A stretch of 64,000 bases of DNA from a virus (IMGVR_UViG_3300027708_000022:98043-162042); one strand, 5' to 3'; positions 5,400 to 46,641 are shown, numbered from the stretch's first letter. Notes: generated from the sequence alone by a model not told the origin. Made by a program: numbers and translations.

Positions 5400-5512
5400 A
5401 AATTGTCCTTACTAAGTATTTTAATAGGTATCGTTTGTACTAATACTTTTATTTAGACAATATTATACTGCAAACGCACATTTTTTTAGGTATATTTGAA
5501 ATTAACAACTGT

Positions 5513-5520
5513 TATAAATA
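5513..5520 (+). promoter_or_regulatory. T4-type late (gp55) promoter
   Basis: Exact TATAAATA upstream of the endonuclease leader. Confidence 0.75.
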
Positions 5521-5578
5521 GGTGTAGGTCACCGAGCTGTAACTCGTACCTACTCTAACATTGTAAAGGAATGCCAGC
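5521..5578 (+). ncRNA. conserved structured leader RNA of endonuclease gene, copy 1
   Basis: GTAGGT-cac-CGAG-loop-CTCG-t-ACCTAC-tctaaCATT-7nt-AATG-ccagc-ATG; covaries with copy at 45911. Confidence 0.7.
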
Positions 5579-6205
5579 ATGAATATTTATAAATCGCCAA
5601 CACAGCGACAAATTGACAATTTCAAACCAACATTTTTATACTTAAAACGCCATAAGGATACTAAACTTTATTATTTTGGAAAAACTGCTACATCCGATCC
5701 TGTAAAATACAACGGTTCTGGTAAATATTGGAAAAACCATTTGAAAAAATATGGCAAAAATATTGAAACTGTTTGGTACCAGAAATTTTACGACATACAG
5801 AAGTTAATTGGTTTTGCTTCAGCGTTTTCAGAAATTTTTGATATATCAAATTCAGAATTGTTTGCAAATTTATGTGAAGAAAATGGTTTAGATGGTGGAG
5901 ATCCAGGTAAAGCCGCATCAAAAAAAACTAGTCTTGCTCTGAAAGGCAGAAAACAGCCTCAATCTAGTATAGATAAACGAAAGAAAACCCTTTCAGAGAA
6001 TCCTATCATTTTTACAGAAAGTCGTAAACAAAAAATATCAAAATCTTTAACTGGTAAAAAATTATCACAAAAACACATTGAAGCTATGAAACTTGGTTCA
6101 AAAACTGAAAAAAGCGTAGAATCTAGGAAACTTAATTTTGACAGAACCGGTAAAATACCTTGGAATAAAGGTATTAAAACCGGTAATAAAAACTTAATCT
6201 CCTAA
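5579..6205 (+). CDS. free-standing GIY-YIG-like homing endonuclease with NUMOD3-type repeats
   Basis: FLYLKRH...LYYFGKT...YNGSGKYW..HL; C-terminal KQKISKSLTGKKLSQKH, PWNKG; antisense to neighbours. Confidence 0.8.
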   Translation: MNIYKSPTQRQIDNFKPTFLYLKRHKDTKLYYFGKTATSDPVKYNGSGKYWKNHLKKYGKNIETVWYQKFYDIQKLIGFASAFSEIFDISNSELFANLCEENGLDGGDPGKAASKKTSLALKGRKQPQSSIDKRKKTLSENPIIFTESRKQKISKSLTGKKLSQKHIEAMKLGSKTEKSVESRKLNFDRTGKIPWNKGIKTGNKNLIS

Positions 6206-6937
6206 TTTTTCGCAAGCTATAATCCAAGATTTAACCAATGAAGATCGGCAGATATCTTCAGGAGTAAAATGAATCCTACTGAATTCAGGCATGGTTTCAG
6301 CAACCCTAAGAAAATCACCTAATCCGGAAATATCGTGTTTATTCTTAATTAGATCATTTTGTTTTGTGTCACCACAGAAAATTATCTTGGATCTGTAACC
6401 AACTCTAGTCACAATAGAAGATAACTCGTGGAATGTCATTGATTGACATTCATCAACTACTACAATAGCATCATCAAAAGTACAACCTCTAAGAAAACTT
6501 GTACTTACAAATTGAATAAAATCCTGTTCACAAAGTCTCTGGTAAGCATCTTTGCGACCAAATAGAGTTTCGCAAATTTGGTGATAAGGTTGTTCATATA
6601 AACTCATCTTATCTTCGACCGATCCTGGAGTAAATCCCATGTCTCGGCCTTGAACAGCTGACCGCACAATGATAACCTTTTTGAAAGGATTGGACTTATC
6701 CAATACTTCTTCTAAAGCTTTGTATAAAGCAATAAAAGATTTACCCACACCAGCTGATCCTGACAACATCATAAAGTAGTCTTGTCTCTTGTATGCATCA
6801 AAAAATAGTTTCTGATTCTCAGTCAATGGGTCAAATGTCTTTAGGTCATCTATCCTGATCTTCAGTTGTGTACCAGGTCGTGGTGTTGTAGGTTTAGGTT
6901 CTACAAAGGTGTCGGTTGTTTGCTGCTTTCTGGCCAT
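6194..6937 (-). CDS. phoH: PhoH-like ATPase
   Basis: GSAGVGKS, MGFTPG, FLRGCTFD, VDECQ, GDTKQND, RSSLVK; start MARKQ at 6937. Confidence 0.93.
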   Translation of the reverse strand: MARKQQTTDTFVEPKPTTPRPGTQLKIRIDDLKTFDPLTENQKLFFDAYKRQDYFMMLSGSAGVGKSFIALYKALEEVLDKSNPFKKVIIVRSAVQGRDMGFTPGSVEDKMSLYEQPYHQICETLFGRKDAYQRLCEQDFIQFVSTSFLRGCTFDDAIVVVDECQSMTFHELSSIVTRVGYRSKIIFCGDTKQNDLIKNKHDISGLGDFLRVAETMPEFSRIHFTPEDICRSSLVKSWIIACEKLGD

Positions 6938-7347
6938 TTTAGTTTTCCTAATACATGGGTTTTGTGAATCTTGCAAGTTACCCAAGAGTTATAATACTGG
7001 TCACTCAATAGGGCGTGCCTGTTAAAAATCTCAAATGTTTCTAAATAATTACATTCGGATCTAGTCTTACAAAGGTGTAGTATCTCTCTAGTAAATTTGT
7101 CCTCTCCTTCATGTTTAACTTCTGCTTGCAATTCTGTATTGCTTCCCCAATACTCTAGCCAATCACTGGCCTTCCGTACCTTTTTCTTTTTACCCTTGAT
7201 TTGACGATAACCAGCCTTAGTGAACAATTTCTTGCCCACATACCGTTTACCTGTTTGAATATTGGTGATAAGATACACATAGCCAATGTTATCGGCTATG
7301 TGTTCTTCTTTGAATTCTTCTGCTGTATTATGATAAAACCAAGTCAA
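6901..7347 (-). CDS. GIY-YIG family nuclease (Seg-like)
   Basis: GYVYLITN..TGKRYVGKK...YWGS...F.REIL. Confidence 0.8.
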   Translation of the reverse strand: MTWFYHNTAEEFKEEHIADNIGYVYLITNIQTGKRYVGKKLFTKAGYRQIKGKKKKVRKASDWLEYWGSNTELQAEVKHEGEDKFTREILHLCKTRSECNYLETFEIFNRHALLSDQYYNSWVTCKIHKTHVLGKLKWPESSKQPTPL

Positions 7348-45901: not shown

Positions 45902-45909
45902 TATAAATA
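45902..45909 (+). promoter_or_regulatory. T4-type late promoter
   Basis: Exact TATAAATA upstream of the endonuclease leader. Confidence 0.75.
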
Positions 45910-45910
45910 A

Positions 45911-45969
45911 GGTGCTAGTCACGATGCTACCAACATCTACTAGCTCTAACATTAAACAGGAATGTCAGC
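45911..45969 (+). ncRNA. conserved structured leader RNA of endonuclease gene, copy 2
   Basis: GCTAGT-cac-GATG-loop-CATC-t-ACTAGC-tctaaCATT-7nt-AATG-tcagc-ATG; covaries with copy 1. Confidence 0.7.
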
Positions 45970-46641
45970 ATGAATATATATACTCCCCGCCTAATCTACT
46001 ACGTCTATGCCTATCTCAGACCAGATGGCACACCTTACTACATCGGTAAAGGTAAAGATAACAGAGCTTGGCAAAAATCTAAAGGTCATATCCCACCTAA
46101 TGATAACACAAGAATAATAATAATAGAGGCAAACTTAACCGAACTCGGAGCTTTTGCTCTTGAACGTAGAATGATTAAATGGTATGGTCGTAAGGATATT
46201 GGTACAGGTATTTTAAGAAATAAAACTGATGGAGGAGATGGCACCAGTGGTTACAAACAAACTGCCGATCACACTAATAAGATTAGATCCGCATTAATTG
46301 GAAGACCTAGTAAATATAAAGGAATTTTAAGACCAAGAACTGGACCATCAATTTCCAAAACAAAATTTGCTGCTAATAAAAAATATTCTACAGAAGAACG
46401 AAATAATGTGAGTATAGGAACAAAATTGGCTATGAGTGATTCAACTATAAAAACTAAATGTGCTGCCCCACATATAAGAGAGTGGATAATTACACTACCA
46501 ACTGACATAGAAATAAAAATCAAAAATCTAAATCAATTTTGTAGGGATAATAATCTAAATATTGCCACGATAAAGTCTGCTGCTAGAAATGGATGGAGAA
46601 CTTCATCGGGATACAGAGTGAGAAAAGTTAAATCTCTATAA
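45970..46641 (+). CDS. free-standing GIY-YIG homing endonuclease
   Basis: YYVYAYLR...PYYIGKG..NRA...E...I..YGR....[11 protein letters not shown]; NUMOD/HTH-like C-terminus. Confidence 0.85.

Follow-up and report, generated by a model that had tools for sequence, protein, structure and literature searches.

Genomic context of the cassettes

The window analysed here comprises 64,000 nt of the 162-kb genome of an uncultured T4-like phage. The genome is ~95% complete, and its DNA polymerase shares ~50% identity with cyanomyovirus polymerases. Two plus-strand genes of the homing endonuclease type are present in the window, both headed by the same structured cassette of ~90 bp. The ORF of copy 1 (5579..6205, plus strand, 208 aa) encodes a putative homing endonuclease of the NUMOD3 type and begins with MNIY, while that of copy 2 (45970..46641, plus strand, 223 aa) encodes a GIY-YIG-like homing endonuclease. 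A third cassette, outside the window, was recovered from the plus strand with a covariance model (79 bits; G000:C1:3569-3664, equivalent to L122:1501-1596). It precedes a GIY-YIG-like ORF (MTIYSSKNRPNHFYVYAYLR...), which is convergent with a minus-strand ORF starting with MSNVHRLVLEGLFG and overlaps it by 4 nt at the latter's stop.

The minus strand carries 175 of the 186 ORFs of at least 80 aa in the genome, and all three cassettes are oriented opposite to these prevailing genes. Their genes account for 3 of the 11 plus-strand ORFs. This near one-way gene orientation, with the structural genes presumably among the minus-strand ORFs, is unlike that of T4. A fourth gene of the same kind, of the SegE_GIY-YIG homing endonuclease type (6901-7347, minus strand, E = 5e-33), adjoins phoH, is co-oriented with its neighbours and has no cassette.

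The surroundings of copy 1 include two further features. A near-consensus sigma-70-type promoter (5613-5642, plus strand; TTGACA, 18 nt, TATACT; 11/12) lies inside the ORF. The whole cassette is enclosed by a 14-nt imperfect inverted repeat (5495-5508 and 5613-5626), and the -35 hexamer of the promoter sits in the right arm of this repeat.

Structure of the cassette

The first-pass annotation described a structured leader shared by the two endonuclease genes, and both copies were found exactly as it had written them, from 5513 and from 45902 onwards. In each of them TATAAATA is followed, after 3-4 nt, by a two-tier hairpin (hairpin 1), a single T, a second hairpin (hairpin 2), a single C and ATGAATAT. 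The hairpin 2 region reads TCTAACATT, a 7-nt loop with the ribosome-binding site (RBS), AATG(C/T)CAGC and then ATGAATAT. The pattern of this 3' half matched twice in the window and in none of 100 shuffles.

In copy 1, the left box (5513..5520, plus strand) is an exact TATAAATA motif and would serve the nuclease mRNA as a T4-type late promoter. The minus-strand reading of this box is a U-rich tail behind hairpin 1', the minus-strand form of hairpin 1. Hairpin 1 (5524..5553) is composed of a 6-bp stem, a bulged C, an R:Y pair, a second bulged C, a 4-bp stem and a 6-nt loop, and its 11 pairs covary. Hairpin 2 (5555..5577) has eight paired positions, including an invariant A.C that reads G.U on the minus strand. 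Its 7-nt loop (5563-5569) holds the RBS on the plus strand and the complement of the RBS on the minus strand. The right box (5584..5591) matches TATAAATA exactly on the minus strand and is a candidate promoter of an antisense RNA. It spans the third base of codon 2, codons 3 and 4, and the first base of codon 5.

Copy 2 has the same arrangement. Its left box TATAAATA (45902..45909, plus strand) is followed by hairpin 1 (45914..45944; GCTAGT/ACTAGC, C-A-C opposite T, GATG/CATC, 7-nt loop) and by hairpin 2 (45946..45968), with the RBS loop at 45954-45960. The right box (45975..45982, minus strand) is imperfect and reads TATATATA on the minus strand. The right-box variant NATATATA was found in 16 of 145 copies.

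That the substitutions in the stems preserve pairing was also borne out. At six of the ten stem pairs both bases are changed from one copy to the other, with pairing retained throughout: stem 1 is GTAGGT/ACCTAC in copy 1 and GCTAGT/ACTAGC in copy 2, and stem 2 is CGAG/CTCG and GATG/CATC, respectively. In the third copy, the inner stem of hairpin 2 shows compensatory changes (ATACG/CGTAT). Other details of the first description had to be revised. CAC/T, taken to be an invariant internal loop, is in fact C-R-C opposite Y, with two invariant bulged C residues flanking a covarying R:Y pair. The second hairpin does hold the RBS in its loop, but its stem is longer than the CATT/AATG originally assigned to it and extends over eight positions, including the invariant A.C. 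A pseudoknot had been suggested between GCT in the hairpin 1 loop and AGC before the AUG; since the complement occurs in 10 of 145 copies only, we rejected it.

Distribution and covariation

The exact 3'-half pattern matched more than 117 IMG/VR loci, and 81 distinct copies (alignment A1) were derived from these listed matches. A search with a covariance model (R1), followed by a relaxed pattern scan, added 100 model hits, among them divergent copies. In total ~150 distinct copies of the cassette were gathered, all from contigs of uncultured phages. The search of phage metagenomes proposed in the first-pass annotation was thus productive, yielding many further homologues and the third copy in this genome.

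Among the 81 distinct copies, double compensatory changes were detected at 11 of the 11 pairs of hairpin 1. In this hairpin 96.9% of cells pair, compared with 30-44% when the partners are slid, and the observed covariation score was reached by none of 500 shuffles. The R:Y pair was represented by A-T in 15 copies, G-C in 48 and A.C in 18, and never by G.T. For hairpin 2, six of the eight pairs change on both sides in the 100 model hits, divergent copies included. The RBS always lies within the hairpin 2 loop and the AUG follows 1-4 nt further on.

The hairpin 1 loop (window positions 5537-5542 in copy 1 and 45927-45933 in copy 2) showed an unusual pattern of variation. In 58 of 145 copies the loop is one whose reverse complement occurs in other copies, the flipped pairs being TTGCAG/CTGCAA, TTGCCG/CGGCAA, TTCCCG/CGGGAA and TTGGCG/CGCCAA. 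This suggests frequent small inversions between the arms of the hairpin 1 stem. Loop flipping also accounts for the 'anti-Watson-Crick' covariation (T...G / C...A) of the loop-closing bases.

No Rfam family corresponds to the cassette. A comparison of the whole window with Rfam 15 gave no match at the gathering score, and relaxing the search to E 10 gave only two chance-level hits, far below the thresholds. No DNA match to the cassette was found among GenBank phages with megablast and blastn. In 185,579 prokaryotic genomes there was a single pattern hit (L242, NZ_CAIWNH010000253.1). This is a 1.7-kb contig of a Mucilaginibacter metagenome-assembled genome, which is probably a misbinned phage contig and is uninformative as to the host. 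Related endonuclease genes in the cultured cyanophage S-SRM01 possess a late promoter but a different leader (model E = 1.3), and the covariance model found nothing in Aeromonas phage 25 (NC_008208), which carries seg43(25). The cassette is a real, widespread and previously undescribed structured element.

Two further readings were tried and rejected. A model of the promoter plus hairpin 1 matched only the three cassettes in the whole 162-kb genome, and hairpin 1 is therefore not a general leader of late genes. A conserved small peptide encoded on the minus strand, starting from the palindromic CATG, was discarded as well, its frame being open for anything from 2 to >26 codons.

Open reading frames behind the cassette

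Sequence searches of Pfam, NCBIfam and PDB named neither of the two window ORFs. The copy 1 ORF matched phrog_314 with E = 7.6e-4, which is a weak label, and its nearest atlas clusters (NUMOD3 with GIY-YIG, or SegE) serve as a lead only. In the copy 2 ORF, MNIY is followed by five more residues and then by a second start-like motif, IYYVYAY. This ORF shares 58% identity with the ORF of L005, which begins directly with MNIYYVYAY; from its sequence, the start of the copy 2 ORF looks as if the cassette module had been joined on. The two window proteins align with each other at a BLASTP E of 0.18 only, in agreement with the earlier remark that the element is better conserved than the ORFs.

Across the family, the ORFs behind the cassette were assigned by Pfam to GIY-YIG (L003, L014) and HNH_3 (L024, L026), or were proteins with NUMOD3 only. 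Among the 119 pattern matches listed, 42 cassettes were opposed to both neighbouring genes and 29 had the same orientation as both, and the junctions were tight; co-orientation with both neighbours was seen in 39 of the 145 parsed copies. Since it heads unrelated nuclease folds, in either orientation to the neighbours, the cassette is portable, as had been proposed from the two window copies for a module of promoter plus structure. It is the 5' end of free-standing homing endonuclease genes in a clade of uncultured T4-like phages.

Strand asymmetry of the fold

The fold had initially been read as a leader acting in the nuclease mRNA. A late-promoter-type box, the fold and the RBS are indeed present on the plus strand, but the wobble statistics and the folding energies favour the opposite strand. 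Leaving out the invariant A.C of hairpin 2, the non-Watson-Crick cells on the plus strand comprise 78 A.C and 13 G.U. Apart from the loop-closing pair, A.C is spread over 11 pair positions. By contrast, 12 of the 13 G.U cells are at the loop-closing pair, and the remaining one is found elsewhere in a single sequence. An A.C on the plus strand is a G.U on the opposite strand. Likewise, the outer pairing of hairpin 2 (CU-A / C-AG) is broken on the plus strand, whereas on the minus strand it runs through as a continuous 8-bp helix with a G.U.

Minimum free energies point the same way. They were lower on the minus strand in 140 of 145 copies, with a mean difference of 3.6 kcal/mol. For the three cassettes of this phage, folding gave -18.4 to -19.8 kcal/mol on the minus strand (z = -2.7 to -2.8) and -12 to -13.8 kcal/mol on the plus strand (z = -0.7 to -1.2), so that the plus-strand folds are no more stable than shuffles. 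The strand bias was equal in co-oriented and opposed cassettes. Being independent of the orientation of the neighbours, it is a property of the cassette itself and is not caused by read-through from neighbouring genes. Whether the conserved fold works within the nuclease mRNA is doubtful. No result obtained here favours self-cleavage or a role as RNA cofactor or protein scaffold, functions that had also been considered.

Two facing late-promoter-type boxes

The fold is flanked by two boxes of the late-promoter type that face each other. The left box, of the type N-ATAAATA, has the TAAATA core in 139 of 147 copies (95%). Its distance to hairpin 1 is fixed at either 3 or 5 nt, which defines two classes within the family. 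Of the four copies lacking the core, three (L047, L057, L094) have an A-run in its place, giving a run of U on the minus strand; L091 has CATATATA there. In this phage genome TATAAATA lies 22-72 nt upstream of eight minus-strand ORF starts, and three of its four plus-strand occurrences are the left boxes of the cassettes. Judging by this placement, the motif probably serves this phage as a promoter.

On the minus strand, the 8-mer of the right box is NATAAATA in 99 and NGTAAATA in 13 of 145 copies, variants of the kinds also found in the left box. For cyanomyoviruses, NATAAATA has been reported as the motif of late promoters (PMC2984593). Because the box lies within coding sequence, its conservation can be read codon by codon. 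In 145 copies, codon 2 is represented by 16 different codons with a T at the wobble base in 139, a constraint at the nucleotide level; ATT (113 copies) and ATA (17) prevail at codon 3, and TAT (122) and TAC (13) at codon 4. HNH-type genes whose products start with MYL or MIFI keep TATTTA in other reading frames. Conservation is weaker in the right box than in the left (~77-80% against 95% for the TAAATA core), and for the right box it is equal in co-oriented and opposed contexts. Its deviations are mostly synonymous (ATT to ATA), and a constraint on I-Y at the protein level must therefore also act.

Behind hairpin 1', the minus strand continues into a U-rich, interrupted tail, which is ACUUUUAUUUAU in the 5-nt class and ACCUAUUUAU in the 3-nt class. 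A terminator scan of the cassette consensus found no site.

A possible antisense RNA against the nuclease start

From the family, fold, strand bias and boxes observed we infer, with a probability of roughly 45%, that the cassette combines a late promoter and translation start on the plus strand with a ~65-70-nt antisense RNA from the minus strand, whose loop is complementary to the RBS. On the plus strand the cassette contributes a late-promoter-type box, the two hairpins, the RBS, the AUG and codons 1-4 (M-x-I-Y). On the other strand, the right box, lying within codons 2-4, would fire leftward and give rise to the antisense RNA. In T4, transcripts start ~6 nt after the late-promoter box. By this rule the leftward transcript would begin at the G adjoining the base of hairpin 2', which would form its 5' hairpin.

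The 7-nt loop of hairpin 2' is complementary to the RBS by construction and would thus present an exact complement of the nuclease gene's own RBS. Hairpin 1' would come next, followed by the U-rich complement of the left box, which may act as a leaky terminator. Termination there could hardly be efficient, because the start codon of an opposed neighbour lies a few nt past the cassette and polar effects would result. Pairing of the antisense RNA with the mRNA leader would cover the RBS and the AUG, and flipping of the hairpin 1 loop does not alter this sense-antisense pairing. The probable effect would be to limit nuclease expression from the strong late promoter; stabilisation of the mRNA is less likely. 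The A.C mismatches, for their part, would keep the mRNA's own fold weak enough for translation.

A broader version is slightly less probable. Throughout the clade, one exchangeable cassette would regulate all free-standing homing endonucleases, GIY-YIG and HNH alike, through the ~65-70-nt antisense RNA with its anti-RBS loop, expressed from a late promoter in the first codons of the nuclease.

Alternative explanations

The same features could belong to a purely cis-acting mRNA leader. Hairpin 1 would then shield the 5' end from 5'-end-dependent decay, hairpin 2 would present or mildly mask the RBS, and the first codons would be kept for initiation and for M-x-I-Y in the protein. Such a leader would fit the fixed spacing of the late-type box at 3 or 5 nt before the fold, and in the 5-nt class a T4-like start would coincide with the first base of hairpin 1. 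The invariable position of the RBS in the hairpin 2 loop with the AUG within 1-4 nt, and the mostly synonymous deviations in codons 3-4, are equally in keeping with it. There is also a precedent in seg43(25) of Aeromonas phage 25, where a stable hairpin lies just upstream of an unsequestered RBS (PMC2988022). However, it leaves unexplained why the mismatches on the plus strand are almost exclusively A.C, why G.U is missing from the R:Y pair, why the A.C of hairpin 2 is invariant and why the variable codon 2 keeps a T at its wobble base. The shuffle statistics of the plus-strand folds (z = -0.7 to -1.2) and the restriction of hairpin 1 to the three cassettes of this phage tell against it too, and we regard this explanation as rather unlikely.

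Another source of minus-strand RNA has to be weighed. With 175 of 186 ORFs on the minus strand and the three cassettes opposed to them, the neighbouring genes of this genome must be transcribed through the cassette, and the minus-strand fold would be made there anyway by read-through. It could work within these long transcripts as an insulator, a processing site, a stabiliser or a leaky terminator that spares the neighbours, and the right box might re-supply the neighbour's promoter. The start of the neighbour only a few nt beyond the left box is compatible with this, and endonuclease cassettes with promoters for downstream host genes have been described in T4 (PMC2988022). But 39 of the 145 parsed copies share the orientation of both neighbours, where no read-through of the minus strand takes place, and these show the same asymmetry and the same conservation of the right box. 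A role confined to read-through transcripts is accordingly improbable.

A mask of the T4 style is more improbable still. Here the left-box RNA (AUAAAUA) of transcripts from upstream would pair with UAUUUAU in codons 2-4 and close a three-way junction around the AUG, and late transcripts, starting inside, would escape. The principle is established for I-TevI, segB and mobE (PMC2988022), and the two boxes are complementary over 9 nt, exactly in copy 1 and at 89% in copy 2. Such pairing would also account for the conservation of the right box at the nucleotide level. However, a 7-bp helix made entirely of A-U pairs is weak, and the complementarity of the left and right flanks is not partner-specific (-5.44 vs -5.13 +/- 0.16 kcal/mol), their covariation reaching only ~1.9 sd. 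The right box is kept equally where no upstream plus-strand transcription is expected, and the strand asymmetry would be left unexplained.

A mask arm further upstream was also considered. Upstream arms were not enriched in the family (-11.19 observed vs -11.21 permuted), and as a general feature the arm was rejected on these equal duplex energies; it was kept for the L033 group only. In this group (L033:7287-7382 and the near-identical L039, L064, L085 and L111), ATGCTGACATT lies directly upstream of the left box and is perfectly complementary to AATGTCAGCAT, which lies at the start codon. This extra upstream arm of 11-13 nt, complementary to the AUG region, indicates that in the L033 group a T4-style mask enclosing the promoter is present as well.

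Least probable is a function of the fold at the DNA level, with the single-stranded minus strand or a cruciform taking part in the recombination, replication or spread of the cassette: DNA hairpins, too, tolerate G.T better than any other mismatch, the strand asymmetry cannot separate RNA from DNA, the loop flip-flop (58/145) reveals DNA-level events at the palindrome, and a module with a sharp 5' boundary is exchanged between unrelated ORFs, but no protein that recognises hairpin DNA (HUH transposase, integrase) is encoded alongside the ordinary GIY-YIG and HNH homing endonucleases, no matching 3'-end element exists because neighbours overlap the ORF stop, and an RBS in the loop with flanking promoter boxes indicates a logic at the RNA level.

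Comparison with known systems

The antisense reading resembles known cases of cis-antisense control. In systems of the SymR/SymE and Sok/hok type, a backward promoter in the first codons or the leader of a harmful gene yields a short structured RNA complementary to the RBS and the start codon. The cassette differs from them in having no homology, in residing in a lytic phage and in targeting a homing endonuclease instead of a toxin, and its transcript is a predicted one.

Among phages, control by a late promoter and a hairpin at the RBS has been described for I-TevI, I-TevII, I-TevIII, segB and mobE of Aeh1 (PMC2988022). The cassette resembles these T-even systems in its late promoter right before the ORF, in the conserved RNA structure at the translation start and in the presumed purpose of restricting the expression of a selfish nuclease. 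Unlike in the T-even masks, the promoter of the cassette precedes two hairpins, of which hairpin 1 is clear of the RBS. The RBS lies in the 7-nt loop of hairpin 2 with the AUG outside, without stable pairing of either; general upstream arms are absent, and the fold is better on the opposite strand. Another parallel is seg43(25), in which a hairpin just upstream of the RBS was left without an explained function (PMC2988022). There, as in the cassette, the hairpin is immediately 5' of the RBS of a free-standing GIY-YIG gene and does not sequester it. Unlike the copies described here, it is not a member of the family, as it gave no covariance-model match.

In fractured genes of marine metagenomes, Dassa et al. 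(2009) described free-standing GIY-YIG and Vsr-like endonucleases preceded by hairpins together with TATAAATA (PMC2677866). The loci have two conserved and mutually complementary motifs, and the authors read the hairpins as mobE-type RBS masks on the mRNA (PMC2677866). The likeness to the cassette consists in metagenomic, phage-type loci with hairpins in the 5' UTRs of different endonuclease families and with a T4 late-promoter motif (PMC2677866).

For antisense control itself, the nearest case is CfrI of the T4-like cyanophage S-PM2, an antisense RNA overlapping a homing endonuclease gene, with which it is jointly expressed (Millard et al. 2010, as summarised in PMC2984593). According to that summary CfrI is ~225 nt long, extends into psbA and was detected experimentally (PMC2984593), whereas the RNA proposed for the cassette would be ~65-70 nt long and confined to the leader.

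In T4-like phages the principal mobile elements are homing endonucleases, and their toleration by the phage has been explained only in part. In the explanation known so far, a hairpin in the mRNA conceals the RBS until late in infection. The cassette is a different answer to this problem; it is very widespread, passes between unrelated nuclease genes, covaries strongly and has no counterpart in Rfam, and its fold points to the strand opposite the gene. It is a variation on the known late-promoter control of homing endonucleases, for which an antisense mechanism is plausible. If the antisense RNA exists, it would constitute a new RNA family and, after CfrI, the second documented antisense control of a phage homing endonuclease. 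Its effect would be that of a general brake, under which selfish nucleases could use strong late promoters and yet do the phage no harm. The cassette can also be used as a marker for such genes in metagenomes.

Cassettes without an intact nuclease gene

Intact cassettes were also found before truncated ORFs, of 28 aa in L059 and 41 aa in L118, and in L159 before an ORF with a stop after 8 codons. These instances imply that the cassette may outlive its nuclease gene. At a further locus (L220:1127-1223, plus strand, 36.9 bits), a late-type box and a typical hairpin 1, without hairpin 2, precede a short unrelated ORF.
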